A stretch of DNA of 64,000 nucleotides from Synergistaceae bacterium (GTDB lineage Bacteria > Synergistota > Synergistia > Synergistales > Aminobacteriaceae). The position numbers and the translations under genes were made by a program. Where the stretch lies: contig JAFRAH010000001.1 in assembly GCA_017405525.1 (NCBI GenBank), positions 31,024-95,023 of the forward strand, given 5' to 3'. Below the pieces are notes generated by a model that did not search any database, had not been told where the DNA came from, and saw only the letters and a program-made list of their open reading frames with translations. Shown here piece by piece: positions 3,160 through 62,443 of the stretch. Numbering within the stretch: position 1 is the stretch's first letter; each line of letters begins with the position of its first letter.

Positions 3160-3163
3160 AGAA

Positions 3164-3667: not shown

Positions 3668-3670
3668 AAG

Positions 3671-4240: not shown

Positions 4241-4256
4241 TGAAGGAGGCGCAAAC

Positions 4257-5261
4257 ATGGCATCACGAATAGCAGGAATATTTGGCAGGCTCAGGAGGCC
4301 GCGGAAAAACTCAGGCAAAAGAGACACTGAAGGAACGTTGTATTCCCTGTGGCTTTTGGGGGTATCGCTGCTTTTGGGATTCGTCGTTGGTGGACTTGCG
4401 AGCTCGGCCATAGGCTGGGGGCTGGACTTCCTGGCCGGGAGCTCAGGAGTTCAGGACGTTGCGGTAACAGGCCGGCAGGTGTCCTCAGAATCCGGGGGAG
4501 CTAAGAGAGGGCTTGACAGTTTCCTTGCGGCCAACCCTTTCAGAATTTCCCCGCGCAAAAAAGAAGAAGAGGTTGTACCGCCGCCACCACCTCCGCCAGT
4601 TCAGGAGGAGGAGACACCGCAAGAGCCAGAGGCAACACTTGATGATGTGGTTCTGAGGGGGACTTTTCCGGGAATAGCGGCTAACTTTGACGTGAGGAAT
4701 GTACCTCATGGCCTCGTACGTATAGGGCAGACGATAGAACAGCACGAGCTTAAAGCGGTAACTCAGTATGAGGCTGAGCTTGTCGCACCCAATGGCAGCA
4801 AGGTCATTAAGCACATAGTCTACGGTCCTGCACCCGTCGCGAACAGGCCAGAAGCACCTAAACCGCCAGCACCTGCACCAGCTCCAGCACAGAGAGAGCC
4901 AGAGCCTCAGCCCCAGCAACAGGGCGAGATAGTTGCGGCAGTTCCCGGCGGACAGGAAGGACAACTTCCCAGCGAACTGGTGAACGATCTCGTGAACAAC
5001 CCAATGACAGAGATGCAGCGCGTCCGTATTGCCCCCAATACCAAGCTAGGAGGTCTCCAGATACAGTGGATACAGAATGACAGCATCCTTAAGCGTCTTG
5101 GGGTAGAACACGGCGATGTGATAAAGTCCATAAACGGCATACCCCTAACGAACATGGTCGATATAGCTAACTCAATAGGCTCACTGATGAATAGTGAGAG
5201 GTTTGACGTTGAGGTAAACAGGGGAGGAAAAAATACAGCCCTCCGCTACGTGGTGAAGTGA
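4257..5261 (+). CDS. gspC: GspC-like protein (TM, Pro-rich linkers, C-terminal PDZ)
   Basis: AAGGAGG SD. TM segment LWLLGVSLLLGFVVGGL. Two proline-rich linkers (PPPPPPPV, PKPPAPAPAPA). C-terminal PDZ-like segment GGLQIQWIQNDSILKRLGVEHGDVIKSINGIPL. Confidence 0.55.
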   Translation: MASRIAGIFGRLRRPRKNSGKRDTEGTLYSLWLLGVSLLLGFVVGGLASSAIGWGLDFLAGSSGVQDVAVTGRQVSSESGGAKRGLDSFLAANPFRISPRKKEEEVVPPPPPPPVQEEETPQEPEATLDDVVLRGTFPGIAANFDVRNVPHGLVRIGQTIEQHELKAVTQYEAELVAPNGSKVIKHIVYGPAPVANRPEAPKPPAPAPAPAQREPEPQPQQQGEIVAAVPGGQEGQLPSELVNDLVNNPMTEMQRVRIAPNTKLGGLQIQWIQNDSILKRLGVEHGDVIKSINGIPLTNMVDIANSIGSLMNSERFDVEVNRGGKNTALRYVVK

Positions 5262-5593
5262 TGCGGCGAAATGGCTTCACCCTGATGGAGGTTCTCGTTG
5301 CTACGGCAATTGCAGGGCTCATGATTACGGCAGGCTTGAGGCTGGTCGCAATGTCCTACAGGCTCTTGGGGGAACTTCAGGCTGAACGGAACATTATCGC
5401 GGCAGCTCAAAGGATATGGCTCAGGTTTCGCATTGAGGACGACATGCCTTCAAGCGGGACAGACGACAAGAATAACATTACTTGGCGCGCTGAAGAACAG
5501 TCTGTGCCTGTCGAGGACTACGAGCTGAAGTTCAGGCGCGTTACTGTAACAACAGGAGAAGGACGCTCAGCCTTTATTTATGTTGCTGAATAA
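5261..5593 (+). CDS. gspI: minor pseudopilin, GspI-like
   Basis: RRNG|FTLMEVLVATAIAGLMI prepilin N-terminus with Glu+5 and about 110 aa. The ATG shares a base with the gspC stop; GTG 5258 is an alternative start. Confidence 0.55.
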   Translation: MRRNGFTLMEVLVATAIAGLMITAGLRLVAMSYRLLGELQAERNIIAAAQRIWLRFRIEDDMPSSGTDDKNNITWRAEEQSVPVEDYELKFRRVTVTTGEGRSAFIYVAE

Positions 5594-5671
5594 TTCTTGT
5601 TTGTAGTATCATTTGCAGGGCATGTTTGCTGAATTACACTGCCTGCTAAAAGAACGGGGGATGTTCCTGAT

Positions 5672-7741
5672 TTGAACCTAAAGAAAATTTTACCGCCTTT
5701 ATTCATTTTCACGATAGCTTTATCCTCATGTGCAGAGCCAGCCACGCCAGCAAGAAGGCAACCAGCACCGCCCTCACCGCCTCAGGAGGCCTCTGCTGAA
5801 TCATCGACTGCCATTAATGAGAGCAACATCATAGCAACCGCAAGGGACATGAGGATCGCAAACCGCATAGAGTTCAACGTAAAGGACTGGGAGCTTTCAC
5901 AGTTCCTTCTTTTCATGTCCGAGATACTGGAGAAAAATATCATTGTCCCGCCCAACATAAACGCAAAGATCACAGTAATAACTCACCGGCCTGTTGACAG
6001 GAACGCCGCGCGGGAAGTAATGCTTTCGACCCTCCAGATGCATAACTTCTCACTTCAGGACATGGGGAGCTACTACATAGTTCGGCAGGGAGGAGTGAGC
6101 TCAACGCCCGAAGTCTACAGGAGCAGGTCAGGACCTAATCTTGGCGAAGAGATAGTAACCTACATTGTCCCTGTGGATTACGTCGCGGCAAATAACATAG
6201 TGGCTCCACTTCAGCAGGCGTTCGGGCCGGGCAGTCTTATCGTTATGTCTGTGGGGGACGGTGGAAAAGATATACTCGTTCAAGGCCGGGCCTCTGATGT
6301 CCGTAAGGCTCTGGACTTCATCCGCAAGATGGATACACCGCAGAGCGCGAGGATTAGCCGGACGTTCGAGCTCAGGTACGGAGATCCAGCCACTGTTGCC
6401 GCACAGCTCAACGCCATAGCACAGGCAAACGGTCCAATGCAGGGGCTCAATGCCATAGCCGACGCTCCGAGCAAGAAAATCATAGCAGTAGGGAGCAGGT
6501 CAGCAGTCGATTACGCCGCGAAGGTCATACGTGAACTTGACGTTGACAGCAAGATAGGCGACTTCCACATCTACAAGCTCAAGAACATTGACGCAACAGC
6601 AGCCGCCGAACAGGTCGCTAAAGTTCTTGCCACAACCGGGACAATGCTGGGGGCAGACGCAGCAAGGTTCCCGGCAACCGTTGTTCCTGACGTTGCGACA
6701 AACAGCCTCATATTCGCGGCAACACAAAGGCAGTTCGACTCGCTAGTTCCCATCCTTGACGCAATAGACGTTCAGCCCAAGCAGATATTATTGCGGGGGT
6801 TCATCGCCGAAATCAACGTGTCCAACCTGGAGAACAACGGCATAGACTGGAACGTAGTGGGCGGCCAAATGTGGGATGACCTTCTTCTTGGCGGTAACTT
6901 GTCGCTTGGTGAGGCTACAGTGCCTTCAACCTTCATGCAGTGGTTCAATGACCTCTCGAAACAGGAAGAGCTCATCGACAGGAACGGCTCAACCTACAGC
7001 GTAACGAACTATCAGCCCATGGCTCTCATGTATGCGACGATTGAACTCCTGAAACGCTACAATGCCGTGAACATTCTTTCAGTCCCGCGCCTAATGTGTG
7101 TCGACAACAAAGAAAGCTCGTTCCAGGTCGGGCAGGTTATCCCCGTCCTTAAGGGCGCAACGTCAGACCTGAGCAACCCTTCAGCAGTTCAGAGCAACTA
7201 TGACTACAAGGACACAGGATTAACCCTGACAGTAACACCCCACATAAGGAGCGGCAACCTCGTAGCTATGGACATAAAGCAAACTACCGAAGATGTCATG
7301 ACCCCGGCGGGAGTCCAGACACCAATAACCTCAAAGCGTGAGGTGAATACTTCCGTTATAGTTGGTGATGGAGAGACGATAATTCTCGGCGGAATGATAA
7401 AGGAAACTGAGACCTCAATGAAACGCAGAGTTCCCGGCCTGTCATATATCCCGTTAATCGGCGGGCTCTTCCAGAAAATCTCAAAGGAGAAACAGAAGGT
7501 TGACTTTGTGATCTTCCTCACCCCTCAGATTATCGAGAACCCTGACGAGATGAGGAGGGCAACAGCAAGTTCATCGGGATTCAGGACACGGTTTGCCGAG
7601 CCTGATACTGACTTGGGATTTTCCGACCTCATGCCCGCAAGAGCTAGAAGTGAGCTCCTCAGCGTTGACGTTAGCCCGTTCGAGGCCGACATAGATATAC
7701 GTTTCAGGGAGCTCTACCAGAAGAGCCTTCGGAGGAGATAG
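5672..7741 (+). CDS. gspD: type II secretion secretin GspD, with lipoprotein-type signal peptide
   Basis: Canonical secretin C-domain: VPRLMCVDNKESSFQVGQVIPV, DYKDTGLTLTVTPHI, VIVGDGETIILGGMI, VPGLSYIPLIGGLFQ, VIFLTPQII. The N-terminus FIFTIALSSC has a lipobox. TTG start. Confidence 0.9.
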   Translation: MNLKKILPPLFIFTIALSSCAEPATPARRQPAPPSPPQEASAESSTAINESNIIATARDMRIANRIEFNVKDWELSQFLLFMSEILEKNIIVPPNINAKITVITHRPVDRNAAREVMLSTLQMHNFSLQDMGSYYIVRQGGVSSTPEVYRSRSGPNLGEEIVTYIVPVDYVAANNIVAPLQQAFGPGSLIVMSVGDGGKDILVQGRASDVRKALDFIRKMDTPQSARISRTFELRYGDPATVAAQLNAIAQANGPMQGLNAIADAPSKKIIAVGSRSAVDYAAKVIRELDVDSKIGDFHIYKLKNIDATAAAEQVAKVLATTGTMLGADAARFPATVVPDVATNSLIFAATQRQFDSLVPILDAIDVQPKQILLRGFIAEINVSNLENNGIDWNVVGGQMWDDLLLGGNLSLGEATVPSTFMQWFNDLSKQEELIDRNGSTYSVTNYQPMALMYATIELLKRYNAVNILSVPRLMCVDNKESSFQVGQVIPVLKGATSDLSNPSAVQSNYDYKDTGLTLTVTPHIRSGNLVAMDIKQTTEDVMTPAGVQTPITSKREVNTSVIVGDGETIILGGMIKETETSMKRRVPGLSYIPLIGGLFQKISKEKQKVDFVIFLTPQIIENPDEMRRATASSSGFRTRFAEPDTDLGFSDLMPARARSELLSVDVSPFEADIDIRFRELYQKSLRRR

Positions 7742-7745
7742 CCAG

Positions 7746-9263
7746 ATGCCCGCAGAAGGAACTCTTGAACGTCCCGCTGAAACTCTCCCTCCCCTTCCCG
7801 ATGCGAAAGAAGTATCCAGTCTACTGCCTGACGGAATGAGTCTCGACATTCTCAGACAGGCGGGAATAGTTCCCCTGAGAGTTGATGACGGTGTTCTTGT
7901 TGTGGGGGCATCAAATTTTGACTCGCTCCCAAAAGCCCAGATGCTTGGTGTTGCTTTGGGTTTCCCGGCTGACATTGAGATACGGGACGAAAAGGAGATA
8001 GGCGACCTCCTTCACACACTCTATGACTTGAGGAGTGTAGCTGCTGACGAGGCCGCGAAAAATATCGAGGGCATCGAGGACATTGATGACCTTAGCCGTG
8101 AGGATGTCTTGAGTGATTCGGTTGATGTCCCGGTTATACGCCTCGTTAATGGGCTTTTCCGTGATGCGCTGAAACAGAGAGCTACTGATATTCACGTAGA
8201 GCCGTATGAAGACGAGGTGCTAATTCGCTTCAGGATTGACGGGGTATTACAGGACAGGTTGAGGCTTCCCCGCTCAAACCAGGCACCGCTAACCAGCCGC
8301 ATAAAGGTTATGAGCAGGATGGACATTGCCGAACACATGACCCCGCAAGATGGACGTATTGGCCTCACGGTTGGCGACAGGGCGGTTGATGTCAGGGTTG
8401 GACTTGTCCCGACACAGTACGGCGAGAGAATAGCGATGCGTCTGCTCGACAAGGGGCACGGATTGATGACGCTTGAAGATTTGGGCATGGAGGAACGTGA
8501 ACGCAGTATCATGGACGAGCTCATACACCGCCCGCATGGAATGATACTGTTCACCGGTCCTACTGGTTCGGGAAAGTCTACGAGCCTCTACGCGATACTT
8601 CAGGCACTTGCGAGCCCGCAGGTCAACATCATCACCGTTGAAGACCCCGTAGAGTATGCACTTCCGGGAGTGTCGCAAATCCAGGTCAACGAGAAGGCAG
8701 GCGTAACGTTTGCATCAGCCCTCCGCTCAATTTTGAGGCAGGACCCGGACATAGTCATGATCGGTGAAATGCGAGACTTCGAGACTGCACACATAGGAGT
8801 TCAGGCATCATTGACGGGTCATTTGGTGCTCTCAACCCTCCACACTAACGACAGCATCAGCGCGATAATCCGACTCGTTGACATGGGGATAGAGCCCTAC
8901 CTTGCCGCAAGCTGCATGATTGGGACTGTGGCGCAGAGATTAGCCCGGAGGTTGTGCCCTCATTGCAGGCGCGAGATTACCCCTCCGGCCATGATGGCGA
9001 AACAGGGGCTCACTCGTGCGTTTGAGGCTGTGGGTTGCTCCGAGTGCCACAACACGGGCTACAGGGGACGCGTCGGACTCTATGAGCAGTTCGTGGTGAA
9101 CGAGGCCATACAGGAGGCGTTTGTGTCGGGAGCTCCGGCCTCAAAACTCAGGGACATAGCACGGGAATCAGGGTTCAAGACCTTGTGGGAGATTGGGCTT
9201 TCGGCGGTGCAGTCGGGCTTGACCTCGCCGGATGAGCTGACTCGTGTTGCAGGGGAGGATTAG
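7746..9263 (+). CDS. gspE: type II secretion ATPase GspE
   Basis: Walker A GPTGSGKST. GspE-type Asp/His boxes (IMIGEMRD, LVLSTLHTND). C-terminal CPHC...CSEC zinc motif. N-terminal T2SS-E N-domain. Confidence 0.9.
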   Translation: MPAEGTLERPAETLPPLPDAKEVSSLLPDGMSLDILRQAGIVPLRVDDGVLVVGASNFDSLPKAQMLGVALGFPADIEIRDEKEIGDLLHTLYDLRSVAADEAAKNIEGIEDIDDLSREDVLSDSVDVPVIRLVNGLFRDALKQRATDIHVEPYEDEVLIRFRIDGVLQDRLRLPRSNQAPLTSRIKVMSRMDIAEHMTPQDGRIGLTVGDRAVDVRVGLVPTQYGERIAMRLLDKGHGLMTLEDLGMEERERSIMDELIHRPHGMILFTGPTGSGKSTSLYAILQALASPQVNIITVEDPVEYALPGVSQIQVNEKAGVTFASALRSILRQDPDIVMIGEMRDFETAHIGVQASLTGHLVLSTLHTNDSISAIIRLVDMGIEPYLAASCMIGTVAQRLARRLCPHCRREITPPAMMAKQGLTRAFEAVGCSECHNTGYRGRVGLYEQFVVNEAIQEAFVSGAPASKLRDIARESGFKTLWEIGLSAVQSGLTSPDELTRVAGED

Positions 9264-9265
9264 GT

Positions 9266-10423
9266 ATGCCGTATTTCTCGTACTCAGGCTATGACGCTAA
9301 GGGCAAGACCACAAAGGGAACGATAGAAGCGGCCTCGTCAATGCAGGCAGTAGACCGTCTCAGTGAACGCGGAATAGTTGTAGTTGACGTTAAGGTTACT
9401 GAGGAGAAGAAGGGAGGGGGTAACGCGAAGATCAAGCTACTCCCACTCGAACAGCACATATTCTTCTGCCGGAGCCTCGCCTCATATCTCAAGTCGGGCC
9501 TTCAGGTAACGGAAGCACTCCGCATAATGTCCAAGCAGGCACGCGACAAGAACATGAAGCCGGTAATGGAGAAGCTATTAGCTGATGTTCAGGGAGGCCG
9601 GAAATTCCACACGGCACTAGCTGAGTCGGGGGCATTCCGTGAAAGTCTCTGGAGGGTTGCCGAATCTGGTGAACAGTCCGGGACGCTCGTGTCTGTCCTC
9701 ACTGAGGCCGCCGAGGAGTTCAAGCTCGAAGACAGCCTCAAGCGAAAGATCAGGGGTGCAATGACTTATCCCATAGTAATGGCTGTAGTTGGGATCGGTG
9801 TCGTATCGTTCATGCTCACCTACGTAGTCCCAAAGATTGCGGAGCTCTTCAACGACATGAACCAGACACTGCCACTGCCTACAAGAATGCTCATTTCAGC
9901 GTCTGACTTTCTCGGAAATTATGGGCTCTATATCCTGATTGCACTTGCGGTGATTTTCCTCTGGATGAAGCGCACAGGCAGGAGCTTTACCCTCCCGTTC
10001 ATGCGGGGGATAAGAGACCAGCTCAACCTTGCCCTTGTGATGTCCCACATAAGCACCCTCCTCAAGACAGGAATACCTCTAGTTCAGGCTTTGCGCATGG
10101 CCTCGTCAATGGACACGTACCAGCAGAGATGGCTTGATGCCGCAGAGCTCGTGAAGGCAGGCCATCGTTTCGCCGCCGCAATGGAGAGAATAGGAATGCC
10201 TGAAGATACCGTTGCAATTGTCCGTGTTGGTGAGATGGGTAGTGATTTGTCGGGAGCTCTATCGAATTTGTCCGAGCAGTGCCGCGAGACAGCACAATCA
10301 AGAATGGAGATGCTCTCGACTCTGATACAGCCGATTATGGTTTTGTCGTTGGGTTTCAGCGTTGGGTTCATCGTACTGGCAATATTGACACCAGTCTTTG
10401 ACCTTGCCGGAATAGTCAGGTAA
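9266..10423 (+). CDS. gspF: type II secretion inner-membrane platform protein GspF
   Basis: 385 aa with a duplicated GspF/PilC-type domain and three hydrophobic segments. GGAGGA SD. Immediately follows gspE. Confidence 0.9.
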   Translation: MPYFSYSGYDAKGKTTKGTIEAASSMQAVDRLSERGIVVVDVKVTEEKKGGGNAKIKLLPLEQHIFFCRSLASYLKSGLQVTEALRIMSKQARDKNMKPVMEKLLADVQGGRKFHTALAESGAFRESLWRVAESGEQSGTLVSVLTEAAEEFKLEDSLKRKIRGAMTYPIVMAVVGIGVVSFMLTYVVPKIAELFNDMNQTLPLPTRMLISASDFLGNYGLYILIALAVIFLWMKRTGRSFTLPFMRGIRDQLNLALVMSHISTLLKTGIPLVQALRMASSMDTYQQRWLDAAELVKAGHRFAAAMERIGMPEDTVAIVRVGEMGSDLSGALSNLSEQCRETAQSRMEMLSTLIQPIMVLSLGFSVGFIVLAILTPVFDLAGIVR

Positions 10424-10686
10424 GAATGAAGAAGGCGGGGCGTGTTACCGTTACAGAAGACTTATGCACTGATAAGGTTGAATATTTTACGGGCAGAACC
10501 ACAGAACAGCTTGGTTATCGCTTCTATTTTCTCTGCCCAACCGCCTATATCCAGTTCTCAATGAGACACCAATTAGCACGGATTATATCACTTGTCAGTC
10601 AGGAATTTTTTAGTCCTCCTGTAACGGTGTACCTCCTTTCTTGTTTATAAAGATGTTGAAAATTTATAGCTATTTATAACTTTTGC

Positions 10687-11634
10687 TTAACTGTTACCCT
10701 GCCTTCCTGATGCCATGCTCCCGAACATGCCCCGTATTGCGTCAAACACATCATATTTCGGACTCCATCCCGTCGCAGAACGAAGCCTCGAATTGTCGCA
10801 CCATATCACCGGGTTTTCCACAGGTCTGAATTTTTCCGGCGACACTATAACCTCAACCTTCCCATGAACTAGCGAGGCAATATACTTCAGAATTTCCTCA
10901 AGGCTATAGCATATTCCCCTGCCAACGTTGAAGACCCTTTCACTGGTATTGCTCTCAAGTATCATCCTGTAGGCCGAGACCATATCCCTGACATCACCGA
11001 AGTCTCTTTTTGCCGAGAGGTTGCCGACGTAAATCTTTCCGTTCCCGCCCGAACGCTCTATCTCCACTGCCTGCCTCACAAACGAAGGGATAACGAACTT
11101 TTCAGGCTGGCCGATGCCCGTATGGTTGAACGTCCTTGTGCTGATTATGTCCATTCCGAAGCTCGACCGATAAATTCCGGCAAAGTTCTCCTGTGCTACC
11201 TTTGAGATTCCGTATGGGTTGCTGGCATTGACGGGGTAGCTCTCAGAAATTGGGTAGGCTGAAGGCGCATATTCCTCGCTTGAGCCTATGAGGAGTATTC
11301 GTGCCTTTATGCCCGACTTCCTGACGGCCTCAAGGATATTCAGCGTTCCGTTGATGTTCACCTCTATGGTCTTCTGAGGTATCCTCCACGAGTCGCCGAC
11401 TGAGCTCACCGCCGCAAGGTTGACGACGTAATCAGGGGCTGACCTCTCCATGAGCCTCAATACACCGTCAAAGCTGAGCATGTCCAAGGAGGTATAGTCG
11501 TGGAAGAACTGCCGCGATGATTTGGGCTCCACAATGTCAGTGCCGTATACCCTGTAGCCGTGAGATGTGAACTCTTCCGCAAGGTATGAGCCAACGAAGC
11601 CCCCACTCCCGAAAATAAGAATGTTCCTGTTCAT
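10687..11634 (-). CDS. NAD-dependent nucleotide-sugar epimerase/dehydratase (SDR family)
   Basis: Rossmann motif ILIFGSGGFVGSYL and catalytic YGISK (YxxxK). ATG 11634 overlaps the stop of the upstream GT4 gene (ATGA). Confidence 0.8.
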   Translation of the reverse strand: MNRNILIFGSGGFVGSYLAEEFTSHGYRVYGTDIVEPKSSRQFFHDYTSLDMLSFDGVLRLMERSAPDYVVNLAAVSSVGDSWRIPQKTIEVNINGTLNILEAVRKSGIKARILLIGSSEEYAPSAYPISESYPVNASNPYGISKVAQENFAGIYRSSFGMDIISTRTFNHTGIGQPEKFVIPSFVRQAVEIERSGGNGKIYVGNLSAKRDFGDVRDMVSAYRMILESNTSERVFNVGRGICYSLEEILKYIASLVHGKVEVIVSPEKFRPVENPVIWCDNSRLRSATGWSPKYDVFDAIRGMFGSMASGRQGNS

Positions 11635-12712
11635 TCCGCAAGAACCTTCCTGTAGCACTCCAGGGTTTCACGCGCTGTCTTGTCCCAGCTGAAGAGTCTC
11701 AGGCGTTCACGTCCGGCAGCCCTCAGCCTCTCACGCAACGAAGTATCCTCAACGACACGGGCAATCTTTGCGGCCATGTCGTCAATGTCCGTGGGGTCGA
11801 AGTATTCTGCCGCGTCCCCTGCAACTTCAGGGAGCGAACTCGAACGTGAACACACAACAGGGCAATCACACGCGAACGCCTCAAGGAGTGGGATGCCGAA
11901 ACCTTCATATTCTGACGGGAAGACGAAGCATTCAGCGTTTGCATAGGCTTGGGATAATGCCTCGTCAGTTATGCTGGAAAGGTGGAAACGGGAAATCAGG
12001 CTGCCGATGACTTCAAGCTCTCTAGGTAGGAATACCCCCCCCCCCCTACGCAAAATACGCAAATATCATCATGTCTCTCAAGTATCGGACGCACTGCCTG
12101 AACGAAACGGATAAAATTCTTGTACCAACCCCTATTACCGACAAAGAGAATGTAGCGTGTACCAAGTGGATTTTTCCCGGCAGACTCAATTTTTGGCATT
12201 GAGTTGCCCAAGTGTATCACTGAAATTTTCTCCGGCCTTATGTCTGGGTATATCTCAAGCACATCACGCTTTGTGCTCTCAGATATTGAGATTATGTGAT
12301 CCGACGCATGAAGCATCTTCTTCTTGTTCCTGATAGTCGGCTCATCTCCTCCGAACTTCTCGTGTATCATGTCGTATACAGTTACTACGAGTTTTCCCGA
12401 ATGACCGCCCAGCATGTACGGGTCATAGTATGTCGGGTGAATTATGTCGTAACCCCTCCTGACTTCATGGAGAGCCTTCAGCTTGTTGACCCGGCTGAAT
12501 ATCCGGCGTTCAAGTCCTCTTACGATGCGATTGCTCTTGCTGTAGTCCCGGATGCCCAGCATGTCCCTGAAGTACCAGTTCCGGCTGTGCAGGCAGCTAA
12601 CCTCAACGTCAACTCCCAATTCGGGCAGACGTGAGACAACCTCGAAGAAGTACCTCGATATTCCCCCGTACCTCTGCGCAAAAAGCATCTGGTAATCATA
12701 GTAGACCTTCAC
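11631..12712 (-). pseudogene. GT4-family glycosyltransferase split into two ORFs (11996-12712 and 11631-12062) by a frameshift in a G12 tract
   Basis: The N-terminal fragment ends ...DDICVFCVGGGG. The C-terminal fragment carries FPSEYEGFGIPLLEAFACDCPVV (EX7E motif). The two frames join across the homopolymer, and 13 or 10 G would give one intact GT4 ORF. Confidence 0.75.
12035..12046 (-). repeat. 12-nt homopolymer (C12 on + strand, G12 on the coding strand)
   Basis: Counted directly: aataCCCCCCCCCCCCtacg. Encodes the GGGG run at the junction of the two GT4 fragments. Confidence 0.95.
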
Positions 12713-12801
12713 AAATCTTCCTCCTCCGCAATAAATTCACCGCTTGTGTTATGATTATAACAAACAACTTAGACGCAACTATACTAAGGAGGCAACCACC
12801 C

Positions 12802-13245
12802 ATGAAAAACAGAAAGATCAAAGGCATCATGTCATCCCGCCGTTCTGGCTTCACACTGATTGAAATTATGGTAGTCGTCGTAATTCTCGGACTTCTTGCC
12901 GCACTCGTCGTTCCCAGAATTGGCCCCCAAGTTGCTGAGGCTCAGAGAACTACTGCCGCAACACAGATACGCTCAATTGAGGACGCTCTCGAAATGTACA
13001 GGATGCACAACGGATTCTACCCCTCAACACAGCAGGGACTTGATGCACTCGTCAATGCCCCGACAACCTCACCAGTCCCAAAGAGATACGCTGAAGGAGG
13101 CTACCTCAAGAAAGTACCTGAGGATCCCTGGGGAAATCCCTACGTCTACAGGAACGTCAACGGAAGAATCACCATCATGAGCTATGGTCCTGACGGTGAA
13201 GAGGGCGGAGAAGGAGTAAATGCCGACATCACAAACGCAGACTAG
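12802..13245 (+). CDS. gspG: type II secretion major pseudopilin GspG
   Basis: SG|FTLIEIMVVVVILGLLAALVVP with Glu+5. Conserved core: ALEMYRMHNGFYPSTQQGLDALV, DPWGNPYVY, SYGPDG. TAAGGAGG SD lies 9 nt before ATG 12802, so the longer track ORF from 12631 is an artefact. Confidence 0.9.
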   Translation: MKNRKIKGIMSSRRSGFTLIEIMVVVVILGLLAALVVPRIGPQVAEAQRTTAATQIRSIEDALEMYRMHNGFYPSTQQGLDALVNAPTTSPVPKRYAEGGYLKKVPEDPWGNPYVYRNVNGRITIMSYGPDGEEGGEGVNADITNAD

Positions 13246-13741
13246 TTCACGTTCAGCCTTCACACTGATTGAGATACTGCTTGTCCTTACGATTATAGGG
13301 GTATTAGCATCGGTGTTGCTGCCGAGAATGTCTTTCTGGTTTGAGCCGCCTTCTACCATCCTTCAGAGAGCCATCGAGGAGGCCAGCGACATGGCACTTT
13401 CAGGAATACCCGTAAGGTTCTCCGTAAAGACTTCAGGGAGTTCACGAAGAGGGACAATACTAGCCGAAGCGTTCATGAAGAAGGAAGAGCCCGAAAACAG
13501 CCTGAGCTCATTTCTTGGGACTAACTCAAACAGGCCGATAGTCCTTGAGTGGCAGAACATCGACATGCGAAACCTCCCGGAAGACAGCGGCTGGAGATTT
13601 GAGCCCGCAGTAATATACTTCTACACTGACGGCTCATGTTCCCCCGCAAAAATCTCAAAGGCAGGCAGGGACGTTCCCGACAGGCTGGCAGATGAATACG
13701 TCCTCACAGTAACAGGATACTGCGCGAAAATCGAGAAGTGA
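13220..13741 (+). CDS. gspH: minor pseudopilin, GspH-like
   Basis: SRS|AFTLIEILLVLTIIGVLASVLLP prepilin N-terminus with Glu+5, about 170 aa. Directly follows and overlaps gspG. Confidence 0.55.
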   Translation: MPTSQTQTSSRSAFTLIEILLVLTIIGVLASVLLPRMSFWFEPPSTILQRAIEEASDMALSGIPVRFSVKTSGSSRRGTILAEAFMKKEEPENSLSSFLGTNSNRPIVLEWQNIDMRNLPEDSGWRFEPAVIYFYTDGSCSPAKISKAGRDVPDRLADEYVLTVTGYCAKIEK

Positions 13742-22337: not shown

Positions 22338-23474
22338 CTACCAGGTAATGCCGAGTTCCTTCAAGGCATCCTGAGCGTCCGTGTTGCCTTTCTGGGCTGC
22401 TTCCCTCCAGAGCTTCACTGCCTCGTCATAATCCTGCTCGACTTCCTCGCCCCTCCTGTACATGAGCCCAAGGTTAGCCTGAGCCTGAGCCTCGCCCTGA
22501 TCTGCTGCCTTCCTGAACCACTGAGCCGCCGCAGTATAGTCCTTCTCCACGCCGTAGCCCTTGTAGTACATGTAGCCTAATGCCGACTGTGCCGGTGCAT
22601 ATCCCTGGTCTGCGGCCTTCCTGTACCATGCGACCGACTCGGTGTAGCTCCTCTTCACGCCGTAACCCATGCGGTACATGTAGCCCAGTGCTGTCTGTGC
22701 GGGGGAATATCCCTGATCTGCCGCCTTCTTGTACCACTTGTAGGCCTCTGCGTAGTCCTGCTTCCTTCCTTTGCCGTTGAAGTAGAGCTCGCCAAGATGA
22801 TACTGTCCCCAAGGATGACCCTGGTCTGCTGCTCTCTTGTACCACCTGTAAGATTCGGCATAACTGCGGTCAACACCATTGCCGGTCTCGTACATAAGTC
22901 CGAGGTTGCTCATGGCCTTAAGGTCTCCGTTGTCAGCGGCGGCTCTGTACCATCTTACTGCCTCTGCGTAGTCCTGCTTTACGCCCCTGCCGTAGTAGTA
23001 CATGTTGCCGAGACTGTTCTGGCTTCTTGCGTCTCCAAGCTCCGCGCCCCTCTTGTAGTAGTTCACGGCCTTGAAGTAATCTTGCTCAACTCCCCTGCCT
23101 TCCTCGTACATGAGGCCGAGGTTCCCCATTGCTACGGCGTTGTCCAGGTTTGCGGCTCTCTCGTAGTATTCTGCGGCTCTCCTGAAATTCACAGGCACGC
23201 CATGGCCGAACTCGTACATTATGCCCATGTTGTTCACTGCCGGGGAATAGTCCTGCTCTGCTGAAAGCCTGTACCACTTCATGGCCTCGCGGTAATTCTG
23301 CTTTACGCCGTTTCCGTCATGGTACATTCTGCCGAGTTCATATTGTGCCGCAGCATCACCCTTGCGTGCTTTCCGTGAAGTATCCCTGAAGTTTGCAGCA
23401 AATGCCGGGAGGGCAGACATAACGAGAACAACTACCACCAAAAACGCCGTAACTTTCCTGAAACCGTTACGCAT
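22338..23474 (-). CDS. secreted Sel1-like (SLR/TPR-type) repeat protein
   Basis: Signal peptide (VTAFLVVVVLVMSALPAFA). About nine 36-aa repeats of the form AQxxLGxMYxxGxGVxQDYxEAxKWYRKAAxQG. Confidence 0.85.
   Translation of the reverse strand: MRNGFRKVTAFLVVVVLVMSALPAFAANFRDTSRKARKGDAAAQYELGRMYHDGNGVKQNYREAMKWYRLSAEQDYSPAVNNMGIMYEFGHGVPVNFRRAAEYYERAANLDNAVAMGNLGLMYEEGRGVEQDYFKAVNYYKRGAELGDARSQNSLGNMYYYGRGVKQDYAEAVRWYRAAADNGDLKAMSNLGLMYETGNGVDRSYAESYRWYKRAADQGHPWGQYHLGELYFNGKGRKQDYAEAYKWYKKAADQGYSPAQTALGYMYRMGYGVKRSYTESVAWYRKAADQGYAPAQSALGYMYYKGYGVEKDYTAAAQWFRKAADQGEAQAQANLGLMYRRGEEVEQDYDEAVKLWREAAQKGNTDAQDALKELGITW
22352..23357 (-). repeat. tandem ~108-bp (36-codon) repeat array encoding the Sel1 units
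   Basis: The same period is visible at DNA level, for example recurring ...ctgatctgc(c/t)gccttc(c/t)tg(t/a)acca... blocks. It produces several long shadow ORFs in other frames. Confidence 0.6.
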
Positions 23475-30184: not shown

Positions 30185-30703
30185 TTGAAGTTATCATTTC
30201 GCATTGAATCCCCTGAAGACTCATCAGGAGCAGGAGACAGTAACAGTCCCGGCACAAATCCAGATTACCCCGACATAAAACGTTACAGCACAGAGAAAGT
30301 TTCAGGCATACTTGAAGGCTATCTTGCTGAGTTGCTCCCTGCCTCAAGGAATTATGATGCCGCAGAAATCTCATTGACCTTCATGAACCCTGACGGAATA
30401 CGCGACATTAACCGCGACTACAGGGACGTTGACGAGCCCACCGATGTATTGTCCTTCCCGATGTTCGAGGCCGGAGAAATCCCCGGTGATATTCCCGTCC
30501 TTATGCTGGGCGACATAGTCATTTGCCCGGAGGAAGTATCACGCCTTCACCCTGAGCTTTCACGCGACGAAGGAATTTCCCTCATGCTTGCACACTCATT
30601 CCTTCACCTTCTGGGCTATGACCACGACACTGACGAGAAGCAGGCGGCCATGTGGACGAAGCAGGACGAGATAGCGCGCAAGATTCTGGGGGTGCTTGAG
30701 TGA
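30185..30703 (+). CDS. ybeY: rRNA maturation endoribonuclease YbeY
   Basis: PTDVLSFP and the zinc motif HSFLHLLGYDH. TTG start; exact start uncertain. Confidence 0.85.
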   Translation: MKLSFRIESPEDSSGAGDSNSPGTNPDYPDIKRYSTEKVSGILEGYLAELLPASRNYDAAEISLTFMNPDGIRDINRDYRDVDEPTDVLSFPMFEAGEIPGDIPVLMLGDIVICPEEVSRLHPELSRDEGISLMLAHSFLHLLGYDHDTDEKQAAMWTKQDEIARKILGVLE

Positions 30704-31992
30704 TGGCGGGGGTAATCACGGGGTTTGTGGTGCTGTTCCTATTGTCGGCATTCTTCAGCGGTGCAGAGACCTCAATAACCGCAACAGGTACAGGAAAGCT
30801 CCTAACACTTCAGGAACAGGGCAAGTATCACTTCCTGAACTCAACGTTTCAGTGGCTCATTGACGACACACAGGAAGCCCTGACCGTCTGCCTCATCTCG
30901 AACAATGTCGTGAACATCTCAGCTAGTGCATTGGCCTCAAGCGTTGCACTCCAGATATTCGGGGCGGGGGCACTTGTTGTTGTTGTTCCTGTGATGACGG
31001 TCTTGATCGTGATATTCGGCGAGATTCTGCCCAAGAGTGCCGCAATGGTCTACTCGGAGAATGTCCTTATTGTTGCCGCGCCAATATTGAGGATTCTGGC
31101 ATTCCTGATTAGCCCTGTAGCGTGGGCAATGAAGAAGTGCGTTACTGGTATCGGGCTGCTCCTTCATATTGACTTGGGGACACAGCAGGTATTCGTTACT
31201 CGTGATGAGATTGAACAGGTCGTGAAGATTGCGGCAGACAGCGGGGCACTTGAAGCCTCAGAACGCCGTATGATTGACGGGATAATCGACTTTGACGAGA
31301 CAAGAGTCCGGGAGATCATGATACCGCGCACCGACATGATAGCTCTTGACGTGAACGACAGCTTGGAGGAAGCCGTAAAGATATTCATTGACGAGGGGCA
31401 TTCACGGATTCCTGTCTACGAAGACAGCCCGGACAATATCGTTGGCATTCTCTACGTCAAGGACACGCTGAAGGATCTTAGCGGCGGCGATTTGTCCCGG
31501 AGCGTCAGGGAACTTCTGAGGAAGCCTATATTTGTCCCTGAGACTATAAGGACTGCCGAGCTACTGGAGAACATGAGGCGCGAACACATCCACATAGCCA
31601 TAATCGTCGACGAATACGGTGGAGTTGCCGGGCTCGTTACGATGGAGGACATTCTGGAGCAGATAGTCGGGGAAATTCAGGACGAATACGACGAGGAAGC
31701 CCCGGAGATACAGAAACTTGAAGACGGCTCATATCTTGTTCAGGGTAGCATAAGCCTTGAGGATCTGAGCGATGCTTTAGGCTCTGAGTTCACGAGTGAT
31801 GATGCCGAGACGTTAGGGGGGCTCGTGCTGCTGCTGTCGGGGAGTTTCCCGGAAGTTGGCGAGGTCTTCACGTATGAGGGCTGGAACATCAAGGTTGCCG
31901 AACTCGAAGAACACAGGATAACCCTCCTCAACCTCTCGAAGGCTGACGGTTTCCTGCCCAATGACCCAAAGGACTACAGCGAGGACGAATAG
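30700..31992 (+). CDS. CNNM/TlyC-family membrane protein (DUF21 + CBS pair + CorC_HlyC)
   Basis: N-terminal 4-TM domain, a CBS pair (IMIPRTDM...SRIPVYE...IVGILYVKD) and a C-terminal transporter-associated domain. Confidence 0.85.
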   Translation: MMAGVITGFVVLFLLSAFFSGAETSITATGTGKLLTLQEQGKYHFLNSTFQWLIDDTQEALTVCLISNNVVNISASALASSVALQIFGAGALVVVVPVMTVLIVIFGEILPKSAAMVYSENVLIVAAPILRILAFLISPVAWAMKKCVTGIGLLLHIDLGTQQVFVTRDEIEQVVKIAADSGALEASERRMIDGIIDFDETRVREIMIPRTDMIALDVNDSLEEAVKIFIDEGHSRIPVYEDSPDNIVGILYVKDTLKDLSGGDLSRSVRELLRKPIFVPETIRTAELLENMRREHIHIAIIVDEYGGVAGLVTMEDILEQIVGEIQDEYDEEAPEIQKLEDGSYLVQGSISLEDLSDALGSEFTSDDAETLGGLVLLLSGSFPEVGEVFTYEGWNIKVAELEEHRITLLNLSKADGFLPNDPKDYSEDE

Positions 31993-35589: not shown

Positions 35590-38321
<2,732 letters not shown>

Positions 38322-53280: not shown

Positions 53281-53318
53281 CAAATAATAGACTACCTCCC
53301 TGAAAATCAAGGAGGCAG
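53281..53318 (-). terminator. candidate terminator after the flagellin gene
   Basis: The minus-strand RNA reads CUGCCUCC-loop-GGGAGGUAG (8 bp including one G-U), followed by UCUAUUAUUUG. The U-tract is imperfect. Confidence 0.4.
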
Positions 53319-53335
53319 CAAGGTTATTCAGTGTT

Positions 53336-55639
53336 CTAATTTCCGAGAAGGCTCAATATTGACTGGGGTAACTGGTTGGCTTGGGCAAGCATTGATGTTC
53401 CTGACTGGTTGAGAATCTGGAGCTTCATGAAATCCATCATAGTCTTTGCCATGTCTGCATCACGTATTCTTGACTCGGAGGCTGTGAGGTTCGTGCTTGT
53501 TGTCGTGAGGTTCGTCATTGTGTGTTCGAGGGCGTTGATGTATGAGCCAATCTTTGCCCGCTGTTTGGAGACCCTGTTTATTGCCCGGTCAAGAAGTCCG
53601 ATTGAACGTGAGGCTGTCTCTCTTGAGGCTACATTGACCCCGGAGATACCCAGTGAGTTGCTGGACATGTCGCCAAGCTGAAGGGTAAACTCCTCGCCTG
53701 AGTTCGCGCCGGTCTGGAGGGTTGTGGTGCTGTCCTTGAGGTGGAGCATTGCCGTGTACTTTTCGCCGCCAGTCAGAACGTAGCCCTTGAGGTTGTCGCT
53801 CCATGATGCAGTTATCCCCGCCATAGGGTCAAACTCAATGTCAACGTTGCTTATTGCGCCCTGAAGTATATTGCCTGAAGACTTTATCCCGGAAGCTATG
53901 TTCTTCCCTGAGTGTGCATCATAGACCGAGATGTTGTACGTGCTCTCACTGGACTCACGTACCGTGTTGAAGCCCAATACACGAAGAAGCTCATCATCAC
54001 CTTCAAGTGTGATTTCGCCGTCAGCACCGGGAATAACCGAACGAAGAAGTATTGTGCCGGGTGCTCCGTGATCTGTGTAGTCTGCAATCTCTGAGCCGTA
54101 TACGTACGTCGCGAAACGTGGAGAATCTCCCTTGATGTATTTTCCCTGATCGAGTCCTTTTTCCACAGCAGAGTCCAGTTTTTCCGTAAGGCTCCCCAAT
54201 GTGTCAGAAGCATCAAGCGTTATGCTGGTAGTCCTTCCTCCTTGCCTGAGCGTCAGTGTCTTGGGTCTCTCAAGAAGGAAATTGCCTTCAGGAGTTATGA
54301 AGTTGCTTATGTCGGAAAGTTTTTTGTTGGGTCTTGGCGGAAATTCATCATTGCTGCTTTCGTCAGCCCCTAGATCTTCACTGATTGAGTCGGCAACCAT
54401 TCCAACAAGGTCAGTCTCCCATGCAGAATATGAAGACAGCATTTTACCTTCAGTCTCATTGCAGAGGTTGTAGAACTCAGAATCCTCACTGCCAGCCTTG
54501 GGGCCTATAACGGTCAGCTTTATGTCGTCAAGGTCTGTGCTAGCATCACCGAAAAGTGCAGCCCTTACTGTCTCTTCAGTGTAGTCCGTCCTTGCACCTG
54601 CGGGAGAAAGACCACTGTCCGGGTAATTTGTGTGGTCAACGTCAGTAACTAGGATCATGTACCTGTTTTCCCCGAAGGTATCGGCATAAGTCTCTGCTGC
54701 TTTCTGTACTCCGTAGTAATTGTACGTGTCATAGCCGTATGGTGCGGTTAGGGGTGCGAGGAGCTCGGTGATCTCGTCTATGTCAGATGACCACAACGAA
54801 CCTTCATCGCTGCTTGGGTCAGTGCCGGGGGGGAATCTATATGCCACAAAGTTAGGGTCTGCAATATCAGCCGTACCGTATGTGCATATTCCGATTTCGA
54901 GGTCGTCAACACCTTTGCTCTCAATATTGCTCTTGAACGCCCTGATGTTCTCCTTCACTTTTGTCAGCATTCCGTTCATTGAGCCTGATACGTCGATAAC
55001 GAACACCACTTTTGCCGAACTTCTTGACACTGATACAGTCTCGCGGCTTATGGCAGTCATGATATTTGTCTTCTGAACCTGAGCACTGCCTGGGTCAGCC
55101 GTAATCTCTATCCTGTAGTTCCCCTCACTGCTGACCTTCTGCCCGAAATTGTCCCTGAACGTGAGGCCGCCATCAATTTTTGCCCTGACGCTTGCATCAC
55201 TTGACGACCACAAAGCCCCGCCTGACCCGTCAAGCAGCCTGTGCCGGTTGAACTGTGTCGTGCTTGCTGTCATGTCTATCTGTTTCCTGAGCTCGTCTAT
55301 CTCAAGCTGTATATATTGCCTGTCCTGTGAGGTAAGCGTGTCATTGCTGGCCTGCACTGAGAGTTCACGCATTCTCTGGAGCATCGAGTTTATTCCGCCA
55401 AGTGCACCTTCAGCCGTCTGGAGCATCGATATTCCGTCCTGTGAGTTCCTGAGTGCAACATCAAGCCCGCGTATCTGGGTGCGCATCTTCTCGGAGATCG
55501 CGAACCCTGCCGCATCGTCTGACGCTGAGTTTATGCGCAGGCCGGTAGATAGTGCCGTGATAGTTCTCTGGAGTGATGAGTTAGTCCCTGAAAGTGCATT
55601 GAACGCCGTCAATGCAGGGAGGTTGTTCGCTATTCTCAT
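53336..55639 (-). CDS. fliC: flagellin with large central insertion containing a VWA (MIDAS) domain
   Basis: N-terminus MRIANNLPALTAFNAL...LSTGLRINSASDDAAGFAISEKMRTQIRGL...LQRMRELSVQASN. C-terminus RIRDADMAKTMMDFMKLQILNQSGTSMLAQANQLPQSILSLLGN. Centre has VVFVIDVSGSM, ICTYGT and ILVTDVD. Start placed at MRIANN (ATG 55639). Confidence 0.9.
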   Translation of the reverse strand: MRIANNLPALTAFNALSGTNSSLQRTITALSTGLRINSASDDAAGFAISEKMRTQIRGLDVALRNSQDGISMLQTAEGALGGINSMLQRMRELSVQASNDTLTSQDRQYIQLEIDELRKQIDMTASTTQFNRHRLLDGSGGALWSSSDASVRAKIDGGLTFRDNFGQKVSSEGNYRIEITADPGSAQVQKTNIMTAISRETVSVSRSSAKVVFVIDVSGSMNGMLTKVKENIRAFKSNIESKGVDDLEIGICTYGTADIADPNFVAYRFPPGTDPSSDEGSLWSSDIDEITELLAPLTAPYGYDTYNYYGVQKAAETYADTFGENRYMILVTDVDHTNYPDSGLSPAGARTDYTEETVRAALFGDASTDLDDIKLTVIGPKAGSEDSEFYNLCNETEGKMLSSYSAWETDLVGMVADSISEDLGADESSNDEFPPRPNKKLSDISNFITPEGNFLLERPKTLTLRQGGRTTSITLDASDTLGSLTEKLDSAVEKGLDQGKYIKGDSPRFATYVYGSEIADYTDHGAPGTILLRSVIPGADGEITLEGDDELLRVLGFNTVRESSESTYNISVYDAHSGKNIASGIKSSGNILQGAISNVDIEFDPMAGITASWSDNLKGYVLTGGEKYTAMLHLKDSTTTLQTGANSGEEFTLQLGDMSSNSLGISGVNVASRETASRSIGLLDRAINRVSKQRAKIGSYINALEHTMTNLTTTSTNLTASESRIRDADMAKTMMDFMKLQILNQSGTSMLAQANQLPQSILSLLGN

Positions 55640-55737
55640 GGCAGCCCCCAGAAAATTCGGCAAGAGGCAACGCAAAAGATACCCTTCGGAATTAATGCCC
55701 CCGCGAAAATATTATGTGATTTCCCAGCTCTTTCCAT
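55636..55737 (-). CDS. possible 33-codon upstream ORF in the flagellin leader
   Basis: AAGGAGGG lies 10 nt before ATG 55737. The ORF MERAGKSHNIFAGALIPKGIFCVASCRIFWGLP ends in a TGA overlapping the flagellin ATG (ATGA). It may instead be untranslated leader. Confidence 0.25.
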   Translation of the reverse strand: MERAGKSHNIFAGALIPKGIFCVASCRIFWGLP

Positions 55738-55811
55738 GAGCAAGAACCCTCCTTGAATTGTTCATTGGGATATTTTGTTTATTTTCGGAAAAACTAACTC
55801 AAGGAATTAGC

Positions 55812-61099: not shown

Positions 61100-61300
61100 T
61101 GCGAAAACATAATACGGTTACGTTTCCTTACTGTTTCAACGAGCTCGATACTCTGGACTTCCCAGTGTACCGCTTGTACGGCTCTCCTCAGTCATTACGG
61201 GGGCATCGTACACCCTTAGAGTTTAGGCTTTACTCAGCTAACCTCTCCAGATTCAAGGCGGCGTTAAAATCCCTGTCGATTACTTTTCCGCATTCGGGAC
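61100..61300 (-). ncRNA. expected location of the TnpB-associated omega (right-end) RNA scaffold; boundaries not determined
   Basis: Placed by analogy only, since omega RNAs span the tnpB 3' end plus the transposon right end. One 7-bp helix GGUGUAC/GUACACU is visible at 61148-61217. No fold was computed. Confidence 0.25.
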
Positions 61301-62354
61301 ACCTGAATATACGTTCTGACAGCTTCAGCTCTTTCCTCACATGGCCACAGCCTGAGCACTTCTTGGAGCTTGGGAAAAACCTGCCCGCAAATACAACCCT
61401 TATTCCTGCCTCTGATGCTTTGAGTTCTATCAGCCTCCGCAGCAAGTGCAGGTTCTGTTCCGCAACAGCCCTCGCAATATGTGAGTTCTTCATCATCCCC
61501 TGTATGTTCAAGTCCTCCATCACGATAGCTTGCGGCCTCATGCTTACTATTTCCCGCGCTGTCTGCCTGACGTATTCGTGCCTTTTGCGCCTTATTCTGC
61601 CGTAGATGTCCTGCACCCTGTATTTCTCCTTCAGGTAATTTTCCGAGCCCTTTTCCTTCCTCGACAAAATCCTCTGATGGTGCTTGAGCTGCCTGGTCAG
61701 CCTCTTCATCCTGTGGTTACGGTTGATGTTCCTGAACACACGCTTGCGTCCTCCACAGCTCACTACGGCCAGTGATTTCACCCCTACGTCTATTCCCATG
61801 TTCACACTCCGCAAAGTCATTCCCGGCTTTTCCGGCTGTACTTCTACCGCGCACTTCAGAAGCCACCTGCCACACTCGAACTTCACCCGTGCATTGTAGA
61901 ACTTCAAGCCCTCAAGGTTGCATTTAGCCTTGAACCTCACCCAGCCGATTTTTTCGAGATAGATGCGGTTATGCTCATCAGCCTTCACTTTCCCGGAACG
62001 TGTACAGAATGACGGCGTGCATTTTCCCTTAGCCTTGAACTTGGGCATTCCCCCGGTCTTCCCTGCCTTAAGCCGCCGGAGAAAATTCCTGTATGCCATG
62101 TTCAAATCTATCAGCGCATTGGCCTCGACTTGCCGGGAAACTTCTTTCAGCCACTTGAACCCTTCACTGTTTCGGAGCTCCGTGAACTTCCGCTTCAACT
62201 CGTACACACTAAGAAGCCTCTTGCTCTCTGCGTATGAGTCCCGCTGAACCTGCAGCCCCCAGTTCCACACCCAGCGCGCTGTGCCTGCATTCTGCCACAA
62301 TAACCCCACCTGAACCTTCAACGGAAACAAACGTATCACCATTGCCTTGTACAT
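61230..62354 (-). CDS. tnpB: RNA-guided endonuclease TnpB (IS200/IS605-family accessory protein)
   Basis: RuvC-I GIDVGVKSLAVV, RuvC-II IVMEDLNIQGM, zinc ribbon CSGCGH...FRCPECG and RuvC-III IDRDFNAALNL. ATG 62354 is preceded by an AAGGGGGG SD; the track's GTG 62363 is the alternative. Confidence 0.9.
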   Translation of the reverse strand: MYKAMVIRLFPLKVQVGLLWQNAGTARWVWNWGLQVQRDSYAESKRLLSVYELKRKFTELRNSEGFKWLKEVSRQVEANALIDLNMAYRNFLRRLKAGKTGGMPKFKAKGKCTPSFCTRSGKVKADEHNRIYLEKIGWVRFKAKCNLEGLKFYNARVKFECGRWLLKCAVEVQPEKPGMTLRSVNMGIDVGVKSLAVVSCGGRKRVFRNINRNHRMKRLTRQLKHHQRILSRKEKGSENYLKEKYRVQDIYGRIRRKRHEYVRQTAREIVSMRPQAIVMEDLNIQGMMKNSHIARAVAEQNLHLLRRLIELKASEAGIRVVFAGRFFPSSKKCSGCGHVRKELKLSERIFRCPECGKVIDRDFNAALNLERLAE

Positions 62355-62443
62355 CCGATGCACCCCCCTTCGGAAGGCACTGTATTATGTCCTCGCACCT
62401 CCTCCTTTCTGTTTGGATTTGTTCGCGGCTTTCGTTGTTGCGC

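Follow-up and report, generated by a model that had tools for sequence, protein, structure and literature searches.

Can a bacterial flagellar filament be built from a subunit that also carries a von Willebrand factor A (VWA) domain with a metal ion-dependent adhesion site (MIDAS), and what might such a filament do? This question is raised by a gene in a stretch of 64,000 nucleotides (nt) from a Synergistaceae bacterium (assembly GCA_017405525.1, contig JAFRAH010000001.1, positions 31,024 to 95,023), which is called the window here and to which all positions refer. The gene is a complete coding sequence at 53336-55639 for 767 amino acids (aa) plus stop, with its start (MRIANN) at 55639 within an open reading frame (ORF) of 53336-55675. 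It lies on the minus strand, as do all of its features and flanking signals described below. An earlier sequence-only reading had proposed that the product is a flagellin with a VWA domain in its variable region, and this was confirmed by our analysis.

Identification as a flagellin

Canonical flagellin ends around an insert of about 530 residues had been noted before, and Pfam hidden Markov models run on the 767-aa product agreed with this description. The N-terminal D0/D1 helices (aa 3-139, 55223-55633; helices at residues 7-127 in the structural model) matched Flagellin_N (PF00669) with 139.5 bits and an E-value of 1e-40 (cutoff 26.6), and the C-terminal D1/D0 helices (aa 681-765, 53345-53599) matched Flagellin_C (PF00700) with 94.1 bits and an E-value of 7e-27 (cutoff 23), leaving about 535 residues between the two helical regions. 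The identical protein was found on 23 metagenome contigs, and its NCBI entry (P0006) is titled 'MAG: flagellin [Synergistaceae bacterium]', MAG standing for metagenome-assembled genome.

Flagellin_N and Flagellin_C are also contained in FlgL proteins, and the D2 fold of the closest solved filament (PDB entry 9AU6) occurs, according to its paper (PMC11532411), mainly in hook-associated proteins. The product could by this account be a hook-associated FlgL-type or a non-flagellar protein whose resemblance to VWA is due to a motif matched by chance, and the full-length Pfam VWA score does lie under its threshold. The NCBIfam models speak against such a protein, with 251 bits for the flagellin Hag model and 110 bits for the FlgL model TIGR02550, whose cutoff of 127 was not reached. 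The clade's own FlgL-like protein, encoded beside flgK in locus L012, reached just 49.7 and 20.8 bits with the N- and C-terminal flagellin models, for which the protein described here has 139.5 and 94.1 bits, and the best match of the latter in PDB is a filament. A chance occurrence of DxSxS was rejected as well, the VWA fold being backed by four independent methods, namely profile, Pfam, model and fold search. We regard this explanation as largely refuted and highly improbable.

The VWA domain of the insert

A VWA domain had been predicted in the insert from short motifs, and this prediction was borne out. The domain comprises aa 207-423 (54371-55021) in the order b1-a1-b2-b3-a2-a3-b4-a4-b5-a5-b6-a6, as indicated by Pfam, structural models, Foldseek and profile matches in PDB. 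In the full-length protein the Pfam VWA model gave 20.6 bits, below its gathering score of 23.8, and VWA_2 was sub-threshold too. Excised aa 199-429 reached 24.0 bits, covering profile positions 2-161 of 174. VWA was matched by all seven family inserts tested (best 8e-12). A search of PDB with the sequence of the insert alone found nothing meaningful, so that a family profile was needed for matches; these were to VWA proteins only, comprising collagen VI, SpaC, Mfa5 and the I-domains of integrins alphaX and alphaM.

Structure prediction gave the same picture. The full-length AlphaFold model (predicted local distance difference test, pLDDT, 76; predicted template modelling score, pTM, 0.46) showed aa 208-423 in canonical VWA strand and helix order, and a domain-only model built from an alignment of 22 sequences reached a pLDDT of 91.4 and a pTM of 0.90. 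When this domain model was compared with PDB by Foldseek, the top 50 matches were all of the VWA fold (E about 5e-7, TM-scores 0.5-0.58), among them integrin beta-I and alpha-I domains, SpaC, LapA vWFA, ANTXR2, ITIH1 and the modular pilin PilB of S. sanguinis. The domain has an isoelectric point (pI) of 4.05.

A putative metal site

The residues of the MIDAS were assigned by a MAFFT alignment with CD11b (integrin alphaM), which was bridged by the more canonical VWA flagellins of Firmicutes; the CD11b sequence was validated by its own numbering. Loop 1, D216-V-S218-G-S220 (54980-54994), corresponds to CD11b D140/S142/S144, and loop 3, the pair T332-D333 (54641-54646) where b4 ends, to T241-D242. 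The candidate for loop 2 is D304-T305 (YGYD304-T305YN, 54725-54730), just before helix a3, where CD11b T209 falls on D304 with T305 adjacent, in a register uncertain by one residue. The 'GG-T' loop of SpaC aligns at the same pair, in agreement with the CD11b alignment. When the I-domain of CD11b was matched to the family profile with hmmalign and with hhalign, the DxSxS segment alone was aligned. The sequence-only reading had thus been right about DxSxS and the aspartate D333, both of which match CD11b, and wrong about the threonine, which it had sought in ICTYGT (T253/T256); this segment forms strand beta2, aligned with CD11b FSLMQYS, and the candidate for loop 2 is D304/T305 instead.

Across the Synergistaceae VWA domains, which share 22-69% domain identity, D216, S220 and D333 were each present in 22 of 22 sequences, position 218 was S or T in all 22, and position 304 was D, S or T in 19. 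The aspartate and second serine of loop 1 were also invariant in 13 of 13 flagellin VWA domains from Firmicutes. Because the MIDAS positions are kept over such a range of identity, the conserved motif argues for a maintained putative metal site. The acidic residue in loop 2 (D304) presumably recalls integrin beta-I domains.

The N- and C-termini of a VWA fold are neighbours on one face and the MIDAS is on the opposite one, an arrangement known from the 'inserted' domains of integrins. For a VWA domain inserted into a flagellin, the metal site is thus expected to face outwards, away from both scaffold and filament axis. By homology and fold geometry, one MIDAS per subunit would be displayed on the filament surface.

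Predicted position of the VWA domain in the outermost layer

Of the solved relatives 9AU6 was by a wide margin the best, a flagellar filament of Geovibrio thiophilus determined by cryo-electron microscopy (Fields et al., Nat Commun 2024, PMC11532411), with an E-value of 1.6e-99 over aa 2-196 and 438-766 (phmmer against PDB); it was also matched by Foldseek (E 2e-37). The alignment leaves out aa 197-437 of the query and residues 188-458 of 9AU6. The middle layer of this filament is made up of D2/D3, and D4/D5 lie outermost, at a radius of about 120 Å. Pairing as dimers along the filament, D4/D5 cover D0/D1 completely, and the authors stress the negative surface charge of 9AU6 (PMC11532411). The same paper states that outer domains similar to those of Geovibrio occur in Synergistia.

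Both halves of the scaffold under this layer are recognisable in the Synergistaceae protein. The N-terminal half (aa 140-196, 55052-55222) ends in ...PGSAQVQKTNIM, aligns up to 9AU6 residue 187, and is kept across family members regardless of what they carry. It is followed by linker 1 (aa 197-206, 55022-55051), which is variable in length and sequence in the family alignment and has a pLDDT below 50 at aa 196-206. After the VWA domain comes linker 2 (aa 424-437, 54329-54370), acidic and Pro-rich, whose pLDDT at aa 424-431 is under 50. From about aa 438 the sequence is again homologous to 9AU6 and to paralogs with another load, and the beta-rich C-terminal part of the scaffold (aa 438-675, 53615-54328) corresponds to 9AU6 residues 459-700 and, by this alignment and the strands of the model, is of the D2/D3 type. 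Segments in the remainder of the insert had been likened to flagellin IN motifs. This resemblance is weak, since Flagellin_IN (PF07196) gave 16.4 bits at aa 461-489 only, below its cutoff of 22.7, and the region is D2/D3-type scaffold common to 9AU6.

Because of this homology, the insert can be assigned to the position of the outermost layer, and VWA is predicted to replace exactly the non-homologous central segment 188-458 of 9AU6. The two proteins share the D0/D1 core, a D2/D3-type scaffold, a nested-domain topology and an acidic surface. They differ in the central segment itself, which in Geovibrio consists of two beta-sandwich domains (D4/D5, DUF992-like), whereas in the Synergistaceae protein it is a VWA domain of alpha/beta type that bears a MIDAS motif. 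We consider it quite likely that the protein is a real flagellin with its VWA domain displayed on the surface.

Exchange of outer domains among Synergistaceae flagellins

A word-indexed homolog search with the insert alone, the kind of check suggested by the sequence-only reading, returned 2-5 proteins and was misleading as to rarity; full-length and exhaustive HMMER searches showed that the domain recurs. Of the 120 full-length relatives that ranked best, at least 28 contain the motif F..D.[ST][GS]SM and 21 have a precomputed Pfam VWA match, and several of the VWA-bearing proteins had been named 'VWA domain-containing protein' automatically by the NCBI pipeline. The VWA flagellins of Synergistaceae fall into class A of about 750-770 aa, which includes the 767-aa protein, and class B of about 1,100 aa. 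The same slot is taken in these 120 relatives by Beta_helix_3 (23 proteins), Flagellin_IN (3) or VWA (at least 28), and in other family members by unannotated cargo. D0/D1 of the 767-aa protein is conserved like that of other family members (66-80% identity), and Synergistaceae MAGs contain several genes for giant flagellins that differ in cargo and often stand in tandem.

At a syntenic locus, DUF2157-metG-dprA, a VWA flagellin is encoded in one MAG and a flagellin with a different cargo in another. In this pair (L033 10001-12268 and L036 10001-12634) homology breaks exactly at ...QVQKTNI and resumes at about aa 430, and the difference is a cassette swap. Taken together with the domain matches, VWA appears to be one of several interchangeable cargo modules in the Synergistaceae flagellin family.

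Two further observations concern other cargo types. The non-VWA cargo at the syntenic locus consists of Gly-rich repeats and looks beta-helix-like by eye only. Giant flagellins of 958-1278 aa in L025, L027 and L017 carry long GGAGIGGG-type repeats, and Pfam Beta_helix_3 matches a relative, P0020; the giant flagellins probably display a beta-helix on the filament.

VWA flagellins in Firmicutes

The recurrence extends beyond Synergistaceae. An exhaustive HMMER search with the VWA profile against 1.84 billion representatives gave 3,487 matches, 15 of them with E-values of 1e-30 or lower, and when full-coverage single-domain matches were ranked by domain score, 15 of the best 16 were flagellins. 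We found a class C of about 470-496 aa, in which Flagellin_N, VWA and Flagellin_C follow each other and VWA is the only outer domain. Its members include proteins of Lysinibacillus macroides (WP_083448469.1 / A0A0M9DKR7), Pontibacillus yanchengensis (WP_237582211.1) and a Halanaerobiales MAG (MCK4259582.1), with Pfam VWA scores of 47-50 bits; the compact VWA flagellins comprise P0144, P0160, P0152 and about 10 further cluster representatives.

Within the 1.84 billion representatives, these Firmicute proteins hold the closest VWA relatives outside Synergistaceae, and the motifs LW[ST]S and NWGxxL are common to both. They differ in their size of about 475 aa, in a VWA domain joined directly to D1, and in a MIDAS that reads DxTxS and often has TN for TD. 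In a crude neighbour-joining tree the flagellin VWA domains formed two coherent clades near each other, with the Firmicute proteins as a separate clade; the tree does not separate one capture of the domain from two.

The VWA layer could instead be structural or protective. It might be a sheath-like outer coat, stiffened or shielding the filament through contacts of adjacent VWA domains, in which a MIDAS metal possibly bridges to an acidic residue of the next subunit, or the swappable cargo might mainly serve evasion (antigenic, phage or predator) together with a strongly negative surface. Several findings fit this role: in 9AU6 the D4/D5 domains form dimers along the filament and shield D0/D1, and the negative surface charge of 9AU6 is stressed by its authors (PMC11532411), the VWA domain is itself very acidic (pI 4.05), unrelated cargo occupies the same site among the top 120 relatives in the numbers given above, and the metG-dprA locus with either VWA or another cargo shows the pattern expected of diversifying surface variation. 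Pure variation would not, on the other hand, keep all MIDAS positions across 22-69% identity, and the retention of the VWA subfamily in three flagellin architectures and two phyla suggests a selected domain activity. A structural or variational role of the cargo layer is the main rival to a binding function of the VWA domain, and we judge it rather unlikely.

Gene context and transcription

The gene had been described as solitary, and Pfam searches of the window ORFs agreed, with no other flagellar gene found among them in the 64 kb. It is flanked by pheS-pheT, a weak zapA and the V-ATPase operon; of the two neighbours named by the sequence-only reading, the V-ATPase operon stands and the zapA call is sub-threshold (22.5 against 23.8 bits). 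In this clade, flagellin genes as a rule stand alone, in varied housekeeping settings.

A candidate promoter of the sigma-28 (FliA) type, TAAT-N16-TCCGAAAA (55782-55809), precedes the ATG by about 170 nt. It was found with a relaxed pattern and is the sole match to this pattern on both strands of the window; the strict consensus TAAA-N14-16-CCGATA is absent. Of 24 related flagellin genes, 9 also have the relaxed pattern in front of them, where about 0.3 would be expected (about 30-fold enrichment), and the candidate of the 767-aa flagellin gene is among the weaker matches. A hairpin resembling an intrinsic terminator, with a 13-bp stem and a T-rich tail (53291-53319), begins 17 nt past the stop codon, and because of it the gene looks monocistronic. 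From these signals, the gene is probably transcribed alone from a late flagellar promoter of the sigma-28 type. The flagellin 5' leader further contains a 33-aa ORF (about 55636-55737, minus strand) with a strong Shine-Dalgarno sequence (AAGGAGG), whose TGA stop shares bases with the start codon of the flagellin gene (ATGA). This ORF could encode a leader peptide or serve translational coupling, or it may be there by chance. No RNA family was found by Rfam anywhere in the window.

Flagellar genes do adjoin flagellins of this family elsewhere. In loci of Fretibacterium MAGs (L012 20-9822 and L023 18-2126), a giant flagellin gene is directly preceded by flgK, an FlgL-like gene, fliW and csrA, and their presence there indicates that the clade has flagella. 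The FlgL-like protein is itself giant (1312 aa) and clearly distinct from the 767-aa flagellin, L012 also holds an MptE/Maf-like gene, and a CheV-type gene lies near the flagellin gene of L034. This gene content suggests CsrA/FliW control and flagellin glycosylation in the clade.

The position of the gene away from the fliW-csrA-linked flagellins of L012 and L023, its place among the weaker promoter matches, and the presence of several giant flagellins with different cargo per MAG, often in tandem, would all fit a minor or conditional flagellin, forming a short filament segment, for instance a proximal or distal one, or contributing few subunits as one of many alternative flagellins, so that a figure of thousands of MIDAS sites would be exaggerated. 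This seems distinctly unlikely to us, given that D0/D1 is as conserved as in other members (66-80% identity), that scattered solitary flagellin genes are usual in the clade and that the identical sequence recurs in many samples.

A possible adhesive function

We propose that the gene comes from a motile member of the Synergistaceae, related to Fretibacterium and from rumen or gut, and that it encodes a genuine filament flagellin built as nested domains. The standard D0/D1 helical core would polymerise after export by the flagellar type III system, and a D2/D3-type scaffold would carry the VWA domain, by way of two flexible linkers, where Geovibrio has its outermost D4/D5. An acidic group of a ligand would complete the coordination of a divalent cation bound at the MIDAS; host or mucus glycoproteins, other microbes, and plant or particle surfaces are candidate ligands. 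Thousands of VWA copies along the filament might in this way produce a high-avidity adhesion that is sensitive to EDTA (ethylenediaminetetraacetic acid). The same mode of metal-ligand contact is used by integrins and by SpaC, Mfa5 and PilB, which are adhesins of pili.

Several points weigh against this proposal. The Pfam VWA score of this protein is marginal (24.0 against 23.8), the TM-scores to solved VWA domains are just 0.5-0.58, and the orientation of the domains to each other is not reliable because of the full-length pTM of 0.46. The canonical MIDAS threonine is replaced or shifted (D304/T305), and the highly acidic surface (pI 4.05) could outweigh a specific binding site. Rapid cargo swapping among paralogs suits surface variation equally well as specific adhesion. 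On balance we lean slightly towards the whole chain, from a filament flagellin with a MIDAS-bearing VWA domain outermost to its action as a metal-dependent adhesin module; adhesion as the role of the domain has an even chance in our estimate. The earlier suggestion of an adhesive or ligand-capturing organelle is in this sense plausible.

Comparison with known systems

Among the best profile and fold matches of the VWA domain were SpaC of L. rhamnosus GG (6M3Y), Mfa5 of P. gingivalis (6TNJ), the type IV pilin PilB of S. sanguinis (7BA2) and LapA vWFA (9NO5). SpaC, Mfa5 and PilB resemble the flagellin in that a MIDAS-bearing VWA domain is grafted on the subunit of an extracellular filament. Sequence identity to these proteins and LapA is 12-18%, and they are tip or minor subunits or, in one case, a giant surface adhesin, present in one or few copies, whereas here the VWA domain would be part of the proposed major repeating subunit of a rotating flagellum. 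With integrin alphaI and betaI domains the flagellin VWA shares the fold, the metal-site motif DxSxS...(T or acidic)...D and the topology of an inserted domain; integrin domains differ in being eukaryotic and allosterically regulated, and no sign of open/closed switching or of ADMIDAS or SyMBS sites was seen in the flagellin domain.

The flagellinolysin FlaMP (Eckhard et al. 2017, PMC5595980) is alike in having a recruited globular functional domain in the flagellin variable region, on every subunit, and in a family that appears spread between lineages. It is different in its cargo, a zinc metallopeptidase with an HExxH motif, as opposed to a binding-type domain on a D2/D3 scaffold in Synergistaceae. 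A flagellinolysin was rejected as an identity of the 767-aa protein, in which no HExxH motif is present; the NCBIfam flagellinolysin model NF033876 gave 76 bits against a cutoff of 205, from the shared C-terminal flagellin region only.

Full-text literature searches that paired flagellin with VWA or von Willebrand turned up no account of a flagellin bearing this domain, and none is mentioned in the surveys of flagellinolysins (PMC5595980), flagellin diversity (PMC7018530) and giant flagellins (PMC6248924). A survey of outer domains in 682 clusters names peptidase, pectate-lyase and WD40 clusters and not VWA, the supplementary table aside (PMC11532411). A paper on an Azospirillum 'minor flagellin' that mentions VWA concerns unrelated genes. 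The sequence-only reading knew of no characterisation of this combination, which agrees with the literature found; the combination is not a one-off, as the VWA flagellin is an undescribed variant among functionalised and giant flagellins and a member of a recurrent family, not a singular oddity.

Other features of the window

Outside the flagellin gene, positions 418-13741 hold a type II secretion / pseudopilin cluster with N-methyl pilin-like and GspL-like proteins and interspersed glycosyltransferase genes, including the secretin GspD (5672-7738), the ATPase GspE (7746-9260), GspF (9266-10420) and GspG (12631-13242). A tRNA-Ser(CGA) gene (31878-31969, minus strand) overlaps the last 90 or so nt of an ORF of the CNNM/CorC family (30700-31992, plus strand). 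A gene for an IS605-family OrfB/TnpB (Cas12f-like) protein (about 61230-62363, minus strand; L001 3286-4410) adjoins infC-rpmI-rplT-pheST. An ankyrin-repeat protein (37818-38318, plus strand) and a Sel1 protein with nine repeats (22341-23474, minus strand) are both eukaryote-like, in a host-associated bacterium.

Implications for flagellin diversity

The outer domains of flagellins are now recognised as a large functional space that is mostly unexplored. To our knowledge, the protease of flagellinolysin is the sole recruited flagellin activity that has been demonstrated, and we know of polyvalent, integrin-like metal-dependent adhesion so far only for tip or minor pilus subunits. More broadly, and tentatively, the giant flagellins of Synergistaceae may be a modular display platform, with a conserved D0-D3 scaffold and an outermost slot, swappable by recombination, for a VWA domain, a beta-helix or repeat modules; its VWA version would be a polyvalent integrin-like metal-dependent adhesion organelle, the VWA module having spread between Synergistaceae and Firmicutes. 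The boundaries of the cargo (…QVQKTNIM / cargo / …LSDIS.F…) are clean and mark a natural site of insertion, which could serve as a guide for engineering display on flagella. Because related VWA flagellins occur in cultured Lysinibacillus and Pontibacillus, the proposal is directly testable. If true, this would be the first dedicated adhesin domain of the pilus/integrin type built into a major flagellin, and would explain in concrete, testable terms how anaerobes of gut and rumen may adhere by their flagella.

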